Assembly: GCA_945865405.1 (NCBI GenBank) | Contig: CAMBDS010000003.1 | Coordinates: 12,374 to 76,373, forward strand | From: Caldithrix abyssi DSM 13497 | GTDB taxonomy: Bacteria; Electryoneota; AABM5-125-24; Hatepunaeales; Hatepunaeaceae | Direction of reading: 5' to 3' | DNA: 64,000 nucleotides | Part shown: positions 11,101 through 59,265 of the stretch, one piece after another | Layout: each line of letters opens with the position of its first letter | How positions within the stretch are numbered: position 1 is the stretch's first letter | Made by a program: the position numbers and the translations under genes | Notes under the pieces: model-generated | What the model saw: only the letters and a program-made list of their open reading frames with translations | Told to the model about the DNA's origin: nothing | Database searches by the model: none

Positions 11101-12615
11101 ATTGAGGATGTTTCTCGGTGACAACATCAACAGCCGCGCTTCGATCTGGGACTCGTAAGAAAGCGGTACGTGGACCGCCATCTGGTCACCGTCGAAGTCA
11201 GCGTTAAACGCCGCACAGACGAGCGGATGAAGCCGAATTGCCTTACCCTCGATCAACTGCGGCTGGAAAGCTTGAATACCGAGTCTATGCAGTGTCGGCG
11301 CACGGTTAAGCAATACCGGATGATCCTGAATGATCTCTTCCAAGAGTTCCCAGACGACATCGAGTTTACGCTCGACCATCCGCTTGGCAGACTTCACTGT
11401 TTTGGTGTAGTCGCGCTCGATCAGCTTGCGAATAATGAACGGTTTGAATAACTCGACAGCCATGTGCTTTGGCAAACCGCATTCATGCAGTTTCAGTTCT
11501 GGACCAACCACAATTACCGAACGACCGGAATAGTCAACGCGCTTTCCGAGCAAGTTCTGGCGGAAACGTCCCTGCTTACCACGAAGGTTATCGGAGAGTG
11601 ACTTCAAAGGGCGGTTGCCGTCGGAGCGCATCGCAACTGACTTCCTGCCGTTGTCGAACAACGAATCGACAGCTTCCTGCAACATCCTCTTTTCGTTGCG
11701 AAGGATGACATCAGGGGCTTTAATCTCGATCATTTTTCGCAGACGATTGTTGCGAATGATGACTCGTCGGTAAAGGTCATTCAAATCCGAAGTCGCAAAT
11801 CTACCGCCATCAAGCGGCACGAGAGGTCTCAAATCTGGCGGTACAATCGGGACAACTTTCAAGACCATCCATTCGGGGCGGTTCCCACCTTCGTGGCTGC
11901 TGGCCATGAACGCCTCGATAACTCTAAGGCGCTTGATATAATCTTGCTTACGCTGAATAGAGGTTTCGATGGCAATCAGACGACGAAAATCGCGCGACAC
12001 GGTGTGGACTTCAACCCTGCGAAGCATTTCGAGGATCGCCTCACCACCCATGAGGGCGATGAACTTGTTCGGGTCGGAATTGGGCAATAACCGGTTTTCA
12101 TAGCCAATCGTATCGAGAACATCGTTGTAATCGTTCTCGGAAAGTACTTCGCAAAATCTCTTGCCTGATGGTCCCGGTTGGATAACAGCAAAAGATTCGT
12201 AATAAATGATCTTTTCAAGGTCGCGGCCAGAGATCCCCAGCAGGTTCCCGATCTTCGATGGCAACGATTTGAAGAACCAGATATGGACAACGGGTACGGC
12301 TAGCTCGATATGTCCCATCCTCTTCCGGCGGACGTCTTTGCGAGTGATCTCGACGCTGCACCGGTCGCAGATGATTCCCTTGTATCGGATTCCGCGATAT
12401 TTACCGCAGAAGCACTCCCAATCCTTCGTCGGCCCGAAGATTCGCTCGCTGAAGAGTCCGTCTTTTTCGGGCTTATAGGAACGGTAGTTAATCGTCTCCG
12501 GCTTTGTCACTTCGCCATGGGAGCGATCGAGAATCATCTCGGGAGACGAAAGCCCAATCGTGATTTTAGTGAAGTGTTCGGTTTCTACATCGAACTGTTT
12601 TTGGCTGTAAGCCAC
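8194..12615 (-). CDS. rpoC: RNA polymerase beta' subunit
   Basis: NADFDGD catalytic motif, N-terminal Cys zinc finger, [17 protein letters not shown]; GTG start; acidic C-terminal tail. Confidence 0.99.
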
Positions 12616-53489: not shown

Positions 53490-53884
53490 ACTTTTCCTTC
53501 CCCCACCACCGCATCTGCTTCGATCTCCACCAGCAACCCCGGCTCAACCAGTCCGCTAATCTCCACCAGTGTCGAAGCCGGCATCACGTCTCCGAAAAAC
53601 TCACGGTGTGCTTTCGAAATAGCTTCGAACTGGCTGATATCGGTCACGTAAACCCTTGTCCGAATCACATCCTTAAGCGACGCCCCCGCCTCTACAAGTG
53701 CCTGTTCGATCTTCGTAAAAGCTGTAATCGCCTGAAGATAAACGTCCCCCGCCCCGATAATCTTCCCTTGATCGTCCACACCTGCGGTCGTTCCTGACAC
53801 AGCAACAACATTCCCGATTCTCACCGCCCGGCTATATCCGTAAACGGGCTCCCACGGCGCTCCCGAGGATATATTCCGCCTCAC
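53486..53884 (-). CDS. RidA/Rut family protein (second)
   Basis: SSGAPWEP..GYSRAV, SGTT, LVEIEADA motifs. Confidence 0.9.
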   Translation of the reverse strand: MRRNISSGAPWEPVYGYSRAVRIGNVVAVSGTTAGVDDQGKIIGAGDVYLQAITAFTKIEQALVEAGASLKDVIRTRVYVTDISQFEAISKAHREFFGDVMPASTLVEISGLVEPGLLVEIEADAVVGEGKV

Positions 53885-54204
53885 GTTTCAGCCCCTTTGA
53901 TGACTCGCGGCACGATAAAATAATCGCCCTTCTTTTGCGGTGCATTCTTCATCACTTCGGAGACGGGCAGCGAAGGCCGAACCACATCATCCCTCAGCAC
54001 CGAGTGGAGATCCAACACATGATGGAGCGGCTCTATCGACGTGGTATCGAGTTCATTTAACTGCTCGACGAAGTCGATAACGCTGCTCATCTTCGCTGCA
54101 AGCTGCTCCCGCTCGTCTTCTGAAGGGGACAGTCTCGCCAGTTCGGCGATCCGGTTCACCTCCTCAAGTGAGATTCTTCGTCCCTTCGTTTCTTCGTGTT
54201 TCAT
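53881..54204 (-). CDS. gatC: Asp/Glu-tRNA amidotransferase subunit C
   Basis: IA.LARL, V..L.ELDT..IEP, LR.D, NAP...GDYF.VP.VI motifs. Confidence 0.93.
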   Translation of the reverse strand: MKHEETKGRRISLEEVNRIAELARLSPSEDEREQLAAKMSSVIDFVEQLNELDTTSIEPLHHVLDLHSVLRDDVVRPSLPVSEVMKNAPQKKGDYFIVPRVIKGAET

Positions 54205-54930: not shown

Positions 54931-55389
54931 TTATGTCAACGCAAAAATTACTGTCTTCGGTGCGCCTTGTGCCGGCTGGTACATGTAAAACATCTGACGC
55001 GGGTCGCGGCTTCTTCTGGCAGCAACTCGTTCCTTCAGCAACTCAAAACTCTTGCTCATGTTGCCTTTGGAGAAGTAGTGAACCTTCGAATCGGCACTCG
55101 TATGAATGTCGTATGTGAAGACCTGACTATCGTACTGATCCTTCTTCTCGACTTCTATCATGATACGGGCGTTCATTTTGCCGTATTCGATAAACACCAT
55201 CGAGTTCTTGACCTTGTAGTTATTCGTCTTGATGTCACGATTGAGCTTTTCAAGTTTGCCTTCGAGTCCGATGGCATTCCCCAAAATGAAGAAACAGTTC
55301 ACAAAATAGAACGATTTGCCCGTCCATTCATGTTCTTTATTATCCCAGACTTCGTCACTGATGTCTCGTGATGGTGCGAAACTTGCCAT
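54931..55389 (-). CDS. Hypothetical protein
   Basis: 152-aa ORF filling the gap between gatD and the MBL gene on the operon strand; no motif I can name with confidence. Confidence 0.6.
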   Translation of the reverse strand: MASFAPSRDISDEVWDNKEHEWTGKSFYFVNCFFILGNAIGLEGKLEKLNRDIKTNNYKVKNSMVFIEYGKMNARIMIEVEKKDQYDSQVFTYDIHTSADSKVHYFSKGNMSKSFELLKERVAARRSRDPRQMFYMYQPAQGAPKTVIFALT

Positions 55390-55530: not shown

Positions 55531-56919
55531 CTACTTCCTGACCTTGCTAATGAACTCTTCCACTTCGGGAATGCCACCTTGAAGGATCAAATACCCATTC
55601 GACGGTTCCCGCTCGGTGATCTCCCCCGCAATCGGAGTATACATGATCTCCTTCACTTTATCAAGATCATTCGTCTGACCCAGCGCCCACCCCAGCTTAA
55701 CGTATCCTACTTCCGGCAGCATATTCGCCATCGGGACAACGCCCAGCTCCATCATATCGCGCCCCGTATCATAGACGTACATCTGGACATATCCCCAAAG
55801 CGTCTGCACCGTCATATAAACCGCGATTCCCTTGTCCCGCGCCCGCTTCAAGGCCGGGTAGAGCGGCTTGTTGACATGCCCCAGTCCCGTCCCGGCGATA
55901 ATGATCCCCTTGTAACCATTGTCGATTAAGCTGTCGATGATATCGGCTTTCATATTCGGATAGTAGTAAACTATCGATACCGCCTCTTCGAACGCCGTAT
56001 TGATGACGACGTTACGGTCGAAGCGCCTACGCTTGTAGTCCTGCCTTAGTGGAGAGATCGTCTGACGGCTGACGGTAGCGATGGGAATATCACCGATAGT
56101 CCTGAACGTCGAGCGGTAGCTCGAGTGCATCTTTCTGACTCTCGTCCCGCGGTGAAGGATGCCATACTCATCCGAAGTAGGCCCAAACATGCAGACCATA
56201 ACCTCGGCAATATCCGATTCAGCAGCCGCCTTGACGCTGTGCATCAAGTTCAGCGCCGCATCCGATGAAGGCCTGTCTGACGACCGTTGCGAACCCACCA
56301 TCACAATCGGCACCGGTGAGTTCTGCACCATGAACGATAGTATCGCCGCCGTGTGGTGCATCGTATCCGTCCCGTGACCAATAACGATCCCTTGCACTCC
56401 TCTCTCGATCTCGCGCCCAATAGCTTCCGCCGTCCCCCGCCACTGCTCAGGCCCCATGTTCTCGCTGAAGACCCCATAGAGCTTCTCAGTCTCAAGATTG
56501 CAAATGTCGGCAAGTTCCGGCACCGACCCGTACAACTCCCCCGGCGAAAAAGCCGGTATAACTGCGCCGGTCCTATAGTCCAGCCGTGAAGCTATAGTCC
56601 CCCCCGTCCCGAACAGTTTCACGCGAGGCAACTTCGGATCGAACGGAAACGCTTTCTCAGGAATCTTGTAGTGAGCTTCCTTCCGACCCGTCACCTCTAT
56701 CGCCTCGACCTGAGCCGACGCTATCCCGACGTTATATCCGCTCCTCAGCTTGATAACGATATGGAGAGGATCTGCCGTCTCGCTTCGCGGCAGGATAATC
56801 CCGGTGAACAGCCCCCGCTTCGTCTTGATATTGACGTCACTCCAGACCATCGCCCCGAAATTCTTCAGGGTCGAGAGCGCTTCGCCGCGATAACCTTTAT
56901 AACTTTCTTGATCCGACAT
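55531..56919 (-). CDS. gatD: Glu-tRNA(Gln) amidotransferase subunit D
   Basis: GatD-type N-terminal domain (G.ILPR...IVIKL.SGYNVG) before the asparaginase fold; GTGGTIASR.DY.TGAV, HGTDT, GSQRSSDRPSSD, RKMHS; likely start ATG 56919. Confidence 0.92.
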   Translation of the reverse strand: MSDQESYKGYRGEALSTLKNFGAMVWSDVNIKTKRGLFTGIILPRSETADPLHIVIKLRSGYNVGIASAQVEAIEVTGRKEAHYKIPEKAFPFDPKLPRVKLFGTGGTIASRLDYRTGAVIPAFSPGELYGSVPELADICNLETEKLYGVFSENMGPEQWRGTAEAIGREIERGVQGIVIGHGTDTMHHTAAILSFMVQNSPVPIVMVGSQRSSDRPSSDAALNLMHSVKAAAESDIAEVMVCMFGPTSDEYGILHRGTRVRKMHSSYRSTFRTIGDIPIATVSRQTISPLRQDYKRRRFDRNVVINTAFEEAVSIVYYYPNMKADIIDSLIDNGYKGIIIAGTGLGHVNKPLYPALKRARDKGIAVYMTVQTLWGYVQMYVYDTGRDMMELGVVPMANMLPEVGYVKLGWALGQTNDLDKVKEIMYTPIAGEITEREPSNGYLILQGGIPEVEEFISKVRK

Positions 56920-57043
56920 TCTATTACTTCTAATTTTCTTATTTAGTATCGTTCCGGAGTGCGCATGCTTGTTTGCGCTTAAATGTCTGTGCAGCCCAAT
57001 CAGCTTTGCCGCGTGGGCTATCTGACCTTCCACTTTCTACTTT

Positions 57044-59026
57044 CTACATCCACTCCGCCAACTTCACATCGACTCTCTCCGATAGTAATCTCCCCGGCCA
57101 TCTTCCCTTCAACTGCCCCATCAATAGTCCCATTGCCGCCCGCTTCCGAATCTCAATATCCTTCAATCCAATCGAAGCGGCAAGGTGAATCCCCTCCTCG
57201 ACCCATCCGGTAATTTCTGACTCGTTGGCTGGTCTCGGTAGCATATCGTCGTCGAATCGCCCCGCTTTAGCCGCATCGGTCAGCGCATCGATGATCCCCT
57301 CACGAGTAATCTTCCCCGCCTTGAACGCCTGCAAAATCTCCCCCATCATTTGAGCGGAAAGATTTTCGGTTGCGATTCTCTTCCTGCCCAGCGACTTCGG
57401 TAATTGTATCAAAACAATCGCCACAAATGTCGGGTCGAGCTTCCACTCCTGCACTGCCGTCTTGAAGAGAGGCGCATATTGCGAGATTGCCAATAGCCTG
57501 ATGCAATCTTCCGGCACGCCCAGTTCGACATACCATTGTTCCCGCTCCCAATAGAACTCCGGCAGCGCCGCCCTCAGCATCGCCAACCGTTCCTCTGTTA
57601 CCTTCTTCGGAGGCAAATCGGTATCGGGGTACATCCTGTTCGGCCCCGGCAAAATCCGCTCAAACCCATTCGTCCCGTCGTCGAAAGCCTGCCTCGTCTC
57701 AGACGGTATCCCGACCGTCGCTTCCTGGGCACGAATCTCGATCTCCCTCGCAGCAGATTCAGTGTCCTGAACACTCCCCCATACCAGCACCAGCGTGTCC
57801 TTATCTGTGGCTCCGACTGTCTTCTTCAAAGTTGCCCACTCCGAGGCTGCCAAGAAATCGCTGTGGCTATCGGAATGAAGTATGTTCGGGAGAGTTGTCA
57901 GACACGAGATAACCCTCACCCTGTCGGAAATCTCCGACCCGAAGTAAGCGTCGGTCTGCGTGGGCCAATGGAGTAACTGCTGGAATCCTTTCAACGAAAT
58001 GCATTTGACGACATGCCCCTGCGCAATCGAATCGTGTATCGGCGTATAGCGCGATTTGCGCAAGATTCTCGTCACGTCATCTCTTCGTGCCTGGAATGTC
58101 TCCGGCGTGATGCCGCGTCGTGCAAGCTCTTCCCTGAGCCTTATCAGGTTGAACTGCCGCATCGCTTCGTTGTAAGTCAAAATCGGCACTGTCGCCAATT
58201 TATCAACGCCCTTGATCTCAATTCTCGTACCGCCGTGCACCGAAACATTGACGTCCTGCCTTCCCGCCCCAATCCCTGTCCTAACTCTTCCCGTTGATCG
58301 CGCCAGACGCCTTATGATTTCCCCCACCTCAGCCACTTCCTGCGGCGTAATCATCTGCGGGCCAGTCACCGTCTCCATCAGCGGCATCCCAAGCCTGTCG
58401 GCGAGGTAAATCCTTCTATGCCCAATATCCGACACTTCACGGCACGAGTCTTCCTCCAGCCCCACCTGAAAAATGTCGATGATCCGGTCCTTATACGGGA
58501 TAGTCCCATCGACGCCGACTAAAGTCGTCCGTTGAAATCCTGTTGGAATCGATCCGTCAAGATATTGCTTTCGGGCGATATGGATCTCATCGACTAACGC
58601 GCAATGATAGAGCATCGCCGCTTGAATTGCAATGTCGAGCGCGTCCTGGTTCAAGTGAAATGGCGGAGTGTCGTCCATCTCGTATGTACAGACGGTGTCA
58701 CGATTGATATGGTAGATGATGTCTTTGCGAGTCTTGAACTCCATCAGCGCCGTCCCGTCATACTCGCCAAGCTCTGAGAGTGTCGGGCGCATATGGCGAA
58801 GCATCTCGGCGTGGAACACATCCGAGTACCGCCCCGCCGGGCAGTGGCAGAACAGCTTCTTGGCCGTCAAAAGTTGTTGATGAACTTCCAGGCCGCATCG
58901 AAACCCGATTCTGGCGTAGTCATCTTCCGTCATCTCCGCGAACGGCTTGAAGCGAAAACTAAGGTAGTCGGCCGGATCGTCCGGCATTGGGCGATGCACG
59001 CCAATTGGTGGGATAACTTTGGGCAA
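57044..59026 (-). CDS. gatE: Glu-tRNA(Gln) amidotransferase subunit E
   Basis: GLEVHQQL, RPTLSELGEYD, DGS..TGFQRT, LEEDS.R, DRLG.PL.E, RQDVNVS, AspRS-like insertion with HSD, RMYPDTD; start TTG 59026 or ATG 58987. Confidence 0.92.
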   Translation of the reverse strand: MPKVIPPIGVHRPMPDDPADYLSFRFKPFAEMTEDDYARIGFRCGLEVHQQLLTAKKLFCHCPAGRYSDVFHAEMLRHMRPTLSELGEYDGTALMEFKTRKDIIYHINRDTVCTYEMDDTPPFHLNQDALDIAIQAAMLYHCALVDEIHIARKQYLDGSIPTGFQRTTLVGVDGTIPYKDRIIDIFQVGLEEDSCREVSDIGHRRIYLADRLGMPLMETVTGPQMITPQEVAEVGEIIRRLARSTGRVRTGIGAGRQDVNVSVHGGTRIEIKGVDKLATVPILTYNEAMRQFNLIRLREELARRGITPETFQARRDDVTRILRKSRYTPIHDSIAQGHVVKCISLKGFQQLLHWPTQTDAYFGSEISDRVRVISCLTTLPNILHSDSHSDFLAASEWATLKKTVGATDKDTLVLVWGSVQDTESAAREIEIRAQEATVGIPSETRQAFDDGTNGFERILPGPNRMYPDTDLPPKKVTEERLAMLRAALPEFYWEREQWYVELGVPEDCIRLLAISQYAPLFKTAVQEWKLDPTFVAIVLIQLPKSLGRKRIATENLSAQMMGEILQAFKAGKITREGIIDALTDAAKAGRFDDDMLPRPANESEITGWVEEGIHLAASIGLKDIEIRKRAAMGLLMGQLKGRWPGRLLSERVDVKLAEWM

Positions 59027-59146: not shown

Positions 59147-59187
59147 AATATAAAGAAACGCCCCGCCAAAAAGTAGCGGGGCGCTTC
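59147..59187 (-). terminator. Intrinsic terminator after meaB
   Basis: GAAGCGCCCCGC-N9-GCGGGGCGTTTC followed by TTTATATTT. Confidence 0.7.
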
Positions 59188-59265
59188 TGTTTCAGAACAA
59201 GTTCGCAAAATGGACTCGTTCCGTCAAGTCTTAGTGTAGCGTGAACTGAAGGTTGTAAAAGTTCG

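Follow-up and report, generated by a model that had tools for sequence, protein, structure and literature searches.

An archaeal-type gatE-gatD operon in a Calditrichota bacterium and its possible role in asparagine supply

We studied a pair of genes, gatE and gatD, in a 64,000-nucleotide stretch of DNA ("the window": positions 12,374 to 76,373 of contig CAMBDS010000003.1, from the Caldithrix abyssi DSM 13497 assembly GCA_945865405.1). The two genes are adjacent on the reverse strand and encode homologs of the subunits of GatDE, the archaeal amidotransferase that converts Glu-tRNA(Gln) to Gln-tRNA(Gln). Reviews hold that this enzyme is exclusive to archaea (PMC2330236, PMC2811023), and an earlier note on this DNA had proposed that the host uses the archaeal machinery as its own pathway to Gln-tRNA(Gln). 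The locus is a native, intact gatE-gatD operon in a Calditrichota bacterium. The distribution of GatDE across the phylum suggests, tentatively, that it is kept for asparagine rather than for glutamine.

The gatE-gatD operon and its bacterial host

Hidden Markov models with curated cut-offs identify both proteins as genuine GatE and GatD rather than as GatB or an asparaginase. GatE scores 515 bits against NF003107 (cut-off 456) and 442 bits against TIGR00134 (cut-off 320), versus 135 bits or less against all of the GatB models, whose cut-offs are 315 or more (the best of these models has a cut-off of 338). It aligns end to end with the GatE of Pyrococcus abyssi (1ZQ1_C, 328 bits) and of Methanothermobacter thermautotrophicus (2D6F_C, 310 bits), and its domain order is a cradle domain, an AspRS-like insertion, a helical domain, and a YqeY-like tail. 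Pfam GatB_N matches across residues 44-480, a span lengthened by the about 160 additional residues of the insertion, and the match to Pfam GatB_Yqey falls just under its cut-off (26.1 bits against 27). The Mg2+ ligands are H49, E191, and E218, which align with His15, Glu157, and Glu184 of the M. thermautotrophicus protein; they are invariant in an alignment of 10 bacterial GatE sequences, and the three ligands of archaeal GatE are reported to be essential (PMC2330236). The GatE motifs that the earlier note listed are all present in the translation, and the GatB hallmarks YFYPDLPK and YRYFPEPDL are absent from it, as that note had said. These two motifs are carried by the genome's true GatB, on contig C22.

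GatD scores 516 bits against NF003217 (cut-off 310) and 511 bits against TIGR02153 (cut-off 324). It has the Pfam domains GatD_N, Asparaginase, and Asparaginase_C (i.e., the GatD-specific N-terminal domain fused to an asparaginase-type amidase), and its catalytic Thr, Thr-Asp, and Lys motifs (GTGGTIAS, HGTDTM, and RKMHS) align with those of P. abyssi GatD, so the earlier description of the extra domain and of the motifs stands. The alignment to P. abyssi GatD (1ZQ1_A) scores 404 bits, versus at most 145 bits for any asparaginase. We considered whether the protein might be a type I L-asparaginase (AnsA) and rejected this, given that the GatD models score 511-516 bits versus 388 bits for TIGR00519 and given the extra N-terminal domain. 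As a control, the true asparaginase of a related genome (G022) shows the opposite pattern of model scores. On its sequence, the product of the locus is a tRNA-dependent amidotransferase of the GatDE type.

The two reading frames are adjacent and uninterrupted, as an open reading frame (ORF) check confirmed, and the 10-nt spacer between them indicates an operon (Table 1). The probable start codon of gatE is also where the 647-aa form in the protein database cluster begins. The contig is not chimeric: a separately assembled genome of the same genus (G002) has the syntenic block meaB-gatE-gatD-orf152-MBL hydrolase-gatC-kdsB, the base composition is uniform across the window, and the flanks are bacterial (kdsB, and a cluster of tRNA-Thr/Tyr/Gly/Thr and tRNA-Trp). 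Upstream, a terminator-like hairpin follows meaB and is the predicted upstream limit of gatE's transcription unit. The 125 nt between this hairpin and gatE contain no Asn-rich or Gln-rich leader ORF, and an Rfam scan of the window found tRNAs only. Downstream of gatD, orf152 is kept at the same position, with 76% identity, only in G002. Farther downstream, on the same strand as gatD, is gatC, which encodes the small subunit of bacterial GatCAB; gatA and gatB are on another contig. Linkage of gatC to gatDE is not a general feature, as it recurs only within the genus (in G002).

Table 1. Coordinates of the genes and other features discussed in the text. Locations without a prefix are positions in the window; C, contigs of the host genome (C33 is a contig of G034); L, loci from other genomes or metagenomes.
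Feature	Location	Strand	Remarks
gatE	57044-59026	-	660 aa from TTG; probable start is the ATG at 58987
gatE, YqeY-like tail	57044-57460	-	residues ~520-660
gatE-gatD spacer	57034-57043	-	10 nt
gatD	55531-57033	-	500 aa from GTG; probable start is Met39 at 56919
Terminator-like hairpin after meaB	59154-59188	-	15-bp stem, then a T run
orf152	54931-55389	-	152 aa; next ORF downstream of gatD; without a match in Pfam or NCBIfam
gatC	53881-54204	-	three genes downstream of gatD; TIGR00135 91 bits (cut-off 47)
gatA and gatB	C22:7732-10673
GluRS, copy on C16	C16:49647-51218	-	Thr at the Thermus thermophilus Arg358 position
GluRS, copy on C1	C1:23753-25399	-
AsnB-like gene	C16:43529-45463		N-terminal Cys; adjoins murA; ~4 kb from the C16 GluRS copy
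Broken gatE of G034	C33:547245-549133		in-frame TGA stops
glnA-like gene, asnA, gatE, gatD	L233 166-6359		in a row on one strand
glnS beside gatE-gatD	L085 674-2422	opposite to gatE-gatD	Myxococcota
glnS beside gatE-gatD	L087 9303-10964	opposite to gatE-gatD	Bacteroidetes
glnS beside gatE-gatD	L260 6562-8241	opposite to gatE-gatD	3.1-Mb metagenome contig
Protein-L-isoaspartate O-methyltransferase gene	L009 7161-7886
Protein-L-isoaspartate O-methyltransferase gene	L011 7626-8348
Protein-L-isoaspartate O-methyltransferase gene	L024 5249-5953
Protein-L-isoaspartate O-methyltransferase gene	L025 6033-6719
Protein-L-isoaspartate O-methyltransferase gene	L087 445-1056

Both genes are under purifying selection, as every segment shows far fewer nonsynonymous than synonymous differences from G002. 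For gatD, pN/pS (nonsynonymous and synonymous differences) is 0.046/0.80, and for gatE it is 0.068/0.85 in the cradle and 0.30/0.80 in the tail; synonymous sites are saturated, hence we give pN and pS instead of dN/dS. Within the genus, GatE changes much faster than GatD (77% identity vs. 94%), and its changes are concentrated in the insertion and the tRNA-binding tail. Between the two congeneric species, the catalytic core of GatE is 88-98% identical and the YqeY-like tail is 30-60% identical.

The closest named GatE matches are consistent with a Calditrichota host, whose genome assembly (2.76 Mb in 43 contigs) is about 90% complete. This genome encodes GatA, GatB, and GatC along with two bacterial glutamyl-tRNA synthetases (GluRS) and no glutaminyl-tRNA synthetase (GlnRS), so a standard bacterial indirect route to Gln-tRNA(Gln) is already in place. 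(gatA and gatB are side by side, and GatB scores 514 bits against TIGR00133.) At the position equivalent to Arg358 of T. thermophilus GluRS, which we checked against 1J09, one copy has Arg and the other has Thr; such a pair is the usual signature of a discriminating enzyme together with one predicted to charge tRNA(Gln). The genome also encodes AsnRS, a single bacterial-type AspRS, and an AsnB-like gene, and we found neither glnS (the gene for GlnRS) nor a gene for AsnA in it. An AsnB-like gene lies near the second GluRS in G002 as well. On the basis of gene content, GatDE would be the second amidotransferase of this host, with GatCAB and the second GluRS forming the route to Gln-tRNA(Gln).

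Both of the host's tRNA(Gln) genes (CTG on C6 and TTG on C28) have U1-A72 and G73, as does the tRNA(Asn) gene (GTT on C17), and tRNA(Glu) and tRNA(Asp) have G1-C72. In tRNA(Gln), base pair 1-72 is thus the bacterial U1-A72 and not the archaeal A1-U72, so the enzyme cannot be using the archaeal identity element. The earlier note expected that a bacterial pathway would require an adapted tRNA(Gln), a non-discriminating GluRS, or an altered specificity of GatE. Its proposal that GatDE is the bacterial Gln-tRNA pathway is not supported, given the full GatCAB and second GluRS of the host and given that GatDE never replaces GlnRS or GatB in related genomes.

Distribution of GatDE across Calditrichota and other bacteria

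Across the phylum's 79 species genomes, we recorded GatE, GatD, GatB, GlnRS, GluRS, AsnRS, AsnB, AsnA, and AspRS. GlnRS and GatB, which are each present in 41 genomes, are complementary (two-by-two table [[7,33],[33,5]], p = 4e-10). GatB is found in 33 of the 38 genomes that lack GlnRS. Each of the remaining five either is incomplete or has a relative in its genus that carries the gene, and we attribute these exceptions to gaps in the assemblies. GatDE is found in 48 genomes and cuts across this split. Sixteen of the 19 genomes that have GatDE and lack GlnRS retain GatB, and the genomes with GatDE that lack both GlnRS and GatB are all incomplete. Among the 79 genomes, GatDE is thus never the sole route to Gln-tRNA(Gln).

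Another 25 genomes have GatDE and GlnRS without GatB. We sampled GluRS from 17 of these, and every single-copy GluRS has the discriminating Arg; the GluRS of genomes without any amidotransferase likewise carry it. For about a third of the phylum, there is no visible source of Glu-tRNA(Gln) on which GatDE would act. Across 43 GluRS sequences, this marker splits first copies from second copies and does not differ between genomes with and without GatDE, so a back-up route that is fed by a non-discriminating GluRS is unsupported.

gatD and gatE are found together throughout the phylum, except in incomplete assemblies. In one genome (G034), gatE is broken by in-frame stops and gatD, elsewhere in the genome, is intact; this genome has GlnRS, GatB, and an AsnB-like gene. 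Another observation concerns the synthetases of family f6 (G046-G051), whose AspRS has His, the "non-discriminating" marker, at Escherichia coli position 30. Three of these genomes (G048-G050) lack both GatB and GatDE, and these three have a second GluRS with a residue other than Arg at position 358, although they possess GlnRS and lack an amidotransferase. The AspRS marker behaves inconsistently in this family.

On the asparagine side, GatDE and AsnA nearly exclude each other. AsnA is present in 4 and absent from 44 of the genomes with GatDE, and it is present in 24 and absent from 6 of those without GatDE (odds ratio 0.02). These counts reflect two corrections: the "GatD" of G022 is the plain asparaginase mentioned above, and the split gatE of G015 is due to an assembly gap. 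If we consider only the 38 genomes that lack GatB, then 28 have GatDE only, 9 have AsnA only, none have both, and 1 has neither. That last genome is 87% complete and its congeners have AsnA; every other genome in the phylum has at least one of AsnA, GatDE, and GatCAB. GatDE is alone among these three in 28 genomes, and in 12 of the 28 there is no AsnB-like gene either. Except for two incomplete ones, all of the genomes without GatDE have AsnA or an AsnB-like gene. The states of GatDE and AsnA vary within four families (f1, f2, f4, and f7) and within two genera (g34 and g52).

Gene order also connects GatDE with AsnA. asnA lies between gatE and gatD in three genomes (G054, G057, and G071), and a metagenome contig (L233) has a glnA-like gene, asnA, gatE, and gatD in a row on one strand. 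The asnA of L233 scores 380 bits against TIGR00669 and its product is 39% identical to that of G054. So asnA is co-oriented beside gatE and gatD in four loci from two apparently independent lineages. We found no remnant of asnA in the gatE-gatD spacer of G073. In a second clade, which is the class that contains an Ignavibacteriales genome (161 genomes), 32 genomes have GatE, 14 have AsnA, and none have both, versus 2.8 expected (p = 0.04).

The absence of AsnRS does not explain these patterns: AsnRS is nearly universal (72 of the 79 genomes), so the charging of tRNA(Asn) does not in itself call for GatDE. The distribution of the AsnB-like genes shows no clean pattern. These genes may not encode asparagine synthetases, as AsnA co-occurs with them in genomes that are free of amidotransferases.

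Beyond the phylum, the view that GatDE is specific to archaea, which the earlier note took as established, is true of the literature only. Relatives of GatDE are present in at least 591 bacterial species genomes, and both NCBI and JGI already label these proteins GatE. In full-text searches of the literature, we came across no paper on bacterial GatDE. When 1.8 billion representative proteins were searched, 663 clusters matched at E < 1e-30, with a gap in the scores: bacterial-type sequences and one Heimdallarchaeota sequence score 446-656 bits, and other archaeal sequences (e.g., from Thermoprotei) score 365 bits or less. In a FastTree tree of 140 sequences, all of the named bacterial GatE group together in a single clade. 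Among named sequences, the closest sister of this clade is from Deltaproteobacteria, and the one from Heimdallarchaeota lies outside (support 100); within our sample, the latter is the nearest archaeal relative of the bacterial GatDE clade.

There are two lineages of GatE in Calditrichota. The type 2 lineage tracks the families of the phylum, and its gatE and gatD are unlinked (over 1 Mb apart in closed genomes) or split by asnA. In four Calditrichota genomes, the unlinked type 2 gatE is directly followed by a gene for an isoaspartate methyltransferase, which repairs deamidated Asn and isomerised Asp, and such a gene is also near gatE in a metagenome-assembled genome (MAG) from Bacteroidetes (L087). 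In the type 1 lineage, which contains the window copy, gatE and gatD are tightly linked, and its neighbors in the tree are from Caldithrix, Myxococcota, Neomarinimicrobiota, Aminicenantes, Terriglobales, Ignavibacteria, Kapabacteria, Chlorobiota, Rhodothermaceae, and Planctomycetota. This nesting among many phyla suggests that the operon has been transferred between phyla. In 64 of the 69 bacterial loci from other phyla that could be assessed, the distance from gatE to the downstream gatD is below 150 bp, and among 80 loci from other phyla, gatD is the only conserved neighbor of gatE (the other apparent "clusters" are antisense frames). The lineages also differ in a short, positively charged loop of GatE that has been placed next to base pair 1-72 of the tRNA (PMC2811023). 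It reads VKRG[LI]GTIRQD in archaea, VRRGIGSVRQD in type 2, and VRTGIGA[AG]RQD in type 1.

What GatDE may do in these bacteria

We propose that GatDE is selected in this phylum because it supplies asparagine, by amidating Asp-tRNA(Asn), in place of AsnA. We would put the probability of this at about 40%. By homology, GatD would free ammonia from Asn or Gln, the ammonia would pass through a tunnel to GatE, and GatE would use ATP to phosphorylate the side-chain carboxylate of the mischarged aminoacyl-tRNA and would then amidate it. A relaxed AspRS would form Asp-tRNA(Asn), which GatDE would amidate to Asn-tRNA(Asn). GatDE would be adapted to tRNAs with U1-A72, which is a feature common to tRNA(Asn) and tRNA(Gln), and would do here what GatCAB does in tRNA-dependent asparagine synthesis of the type known from Thermus, Deinococcus, and Bdellovibrio. 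A broader proposal, which we make more tentatively and which may well be wrong, is that bacterial GatDE in general is an Asp-tRNA(Asn) amidotransferase. Together with a relaxed AspRS, it would give dozens of Calditrichota species, and perhaps many of the at least 591 bacterial species that carry it, their sole route to asparagine; it would be interchangeable with AsnA during evolution, and its gain, sometimes together with glnS, would let a lineage drop GatCAB.

Several results weigh against a role in asparagine supply. Archaeal GatDE is strictly specific for Glu-tRNA(Gln), and the insertion of archaeal GatE, which the window's GatE retains, is modelled to clash with class II AspRS (PMC2330236, PMC2811023). 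Also, our Fisher tests take no account of phylogeny. A comparison of independent pairs, made on a weak tree of AspRS fragments, had only 5 supported contrasts and is underpowered; AsnA went the opposite way from GatDE in about 3.5 of these and the same way in 1 (p ~0.4). In the second clade, 115 of the 161 genomes have neither GatDE nor AsnA. The AspRS marker at E. coli positions 30 and 82, which we examined in 75 genomes, does not correlate with GatDE. The AspRS of the host has Leu at position 30 and Met at position 82. Nearly every AspRS of the phylum shares the Leu, in genomes with and without GatDE alike, and the AspRS of two genomes without any amidotransferase (G003 and G013) looks like the AspRS of genomes with GatDE only. 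Leu at position 30 is said to mark the discriminating state (the rule of Bernard et al. 2006), with a modest effect. Across 98 loci, we found no leader peptide or attenuator rich in Asn or Gln codons upstream of gatE. In three loci from other phyla, glnS adjoins gatE-gatD and runs on the opposite strand, which points toward glutamine. Finally, on gene content, this host does not require GatDE for asparagine, given its GatCAB and AsnB-like gene.

GatDE might instead have remained a Glu-tRNA(Gln) amidotransferase that was re-tuned to U1-A72 and that serves as a second, back-up, or condition-specific route, beside GatCAB in this host and beside GlnRS in its relatives. For example, it might be used under a shortage of glutamine or to remove mischarged tRNA(Gln). 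We consider this possible but we lean against it. The family has no other demonstrated activity than the conversion of Glu-tRNA(Gln) (PMC2330236, PMC2811023), its catalytic core is kept in full here, the GluRS with Thr at position 358 is a potential source of substrate in the host, glnS is next to gatE-gatD in L085, L087, and L260, and GatDE is mildly enriched in genomes with GlnRS (odds ratio 3, p = 0.03). On the other hand, GatDE never substitutes for GlnRS or GatCAB in the phylum, the single-copy GluRS sampled from 17 of the 25 genomes with GatDE and GlnRS but without GatB leave it no visible substrate, and neither the near-exclusion of AsnA nor the asnA-gatE-gatD operons would be explained. 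Those operons and the glnS neighbors could both be accommodated if GatDE had dual specificity or acted in quality control, so that its role in each cell would be set by which mischarged tRNAs the host's synthetases make. The shared U1-A72 and G73 of tRNA(Gln) and tRNA(Asn), as opposed to the G1-C72 of tRNA(Glu) and tRNA(Asp), would permit this, and so would the tRNA-binding tail, which is the least constrained part of GatE. However, no marker of a non-discriminating synthetase correlates with GatDE, and an enzyme for pure quality control would not be expected to exclude AsnA, so dual specificity seems unlikely to us.

We think it improbable that the kinase and amidase activities are used outside of translation, on some other substrate with an acidic residue or in the handling of asparagine or ammonia with AsnA and GatD as partners. 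All of the tRNA-related domains of GatE are retained under purifying selection, GatD and GatE co-occur strictly, and if AsnA were the partner that provides the donor, then the two should occur together, and they exclude each other instead. Some observations would fit such a use: the synthetase markers reveal no source of substrate, gatE and gatD are far apart in many genomes of the phylum, several loci have the isoaspartate methyltransferase gene after gatE, the asnA-gatE-gatD of L233 comes behind a glnA-like gene, and GatDE from M. thermautotrophicus uses Asn as the donor at least as well as Gln (PMC2330236). It is least likely of all, indeed very hard to believe, that the genes are a decaying relic of horizontal transfer or an artefact of assembly or binning. 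The broken gatE of G034 and the nesting of the type 1 operon among many phyla could be read that way, but in the window the frames are intact and pN is far below pS, the syntenic block recurs in an independent assembly and the composition is uniform, and there are homologs on closed chromosomes of 4-5 Mb.

Reviews present GatDE as the archaeal signature enzyme for Gln-tRNA(Gln), and its presence is sometimes used as a marker for the domain. Here it is a conserved and selected gene pair in a large clade of bacteria. In every genome that we examined, it appears to be dispensable for glutamine, yet it alternates with AsnA. If this pattern reflects a function in asparagine supply, then the family has switched substrates. 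Metabolic reconstructions that call these hosts asparagine auxotrophs, or that credit GatDE with the charging of glutamine, would be wrong, and the evolution of the two routes of indirect aminoacylation would need to be revisited. If the pattern does not reflect function, then an apparently redundant enzyme is being kept under selection, which would also call for an explanation.

Comparison with known amidotransferases

Membership in the GatDE family is secure, and the host's domain of life, the identity element of the tRNA, and probably the physiological role differ from those of the described enzyme. The archaeal enzymes of known structure (2D6F, with tRNA(Gln), and 1ZQ1) have the same two subunits with the same order of domains, with 310-328 bits for GatE and 394-404 bits for GatD. 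They share the Mg2+ ligands and the Thr, Thr-Asp, and Lys motifs with the proteins in the window, which pass the NCBIfam equivalog cut-offs. Unlike this enzyme, archaeal GatDE reads A1-U72, where the host's tRNA(Gln) has U1-A72. The archaeal GatE loop is VKRG[LI]GTI, versus VRTGIGAG in this GatE, and the first Gly of the GXXAXGX motif in the tail is replaced (KRAAMGL). The gene order here is gatE-gatD; it is gatD-gatE in metagenome contigs that are putatively archaeal (these were assigned by similarity only). Also unlike archaeal GatDE, the enzyme in these bacteria is not the sole route to Gln-tRNA: it co-exists with GatCAB or GlnRS, and its distribution is complementary to that of AsnA.

GatE is paralogous to the GatB of bacterial GatCAB and shares its kinase and amidation chemistry and its YqeY-like tail, and in this host both enzymes would act on tRNAs with U1-A72. 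The amidase partner in GatCAB is an amidase-family GatA, together with GatC, versus the asparaginase homolog GatD here. Bacterial GatB is without the AspRS-like insertion that GatE has, and GatE is without the two GatB hallmarks.

The closest known parallel to the role that we propose, i.e., asparagine supply through Asp-tRNA(Asn), is in Thermus thermophilus, Deinococcus radiodurans, and Bdellovibrio bacteriovorus, which have both GlnRS and AsnRS and yet keep an amidotransferase; they make asparagine on tRNA (PMC4206432). More broadly, bacteria with GlnRS, AsnRS, an amidotransferase, and a single AspRS of the bacterial type make asparagine in this way (PMC4206432). Many of the Calditrichota genomes share these features: they have AsnRS, they lack AsnA and often AsnB, and they keep an amidotransferase despite having GlnRS. 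A tRNA(Asn) with U1-A72 is also held in common, and the single bacterial-type AspRS is as in Bdellovibrio. There are two differences. The AspRS here carries the "discriminating" Leu marker instead, and the established route uses GatCAB, so that GatDE in that part would be without precedent.

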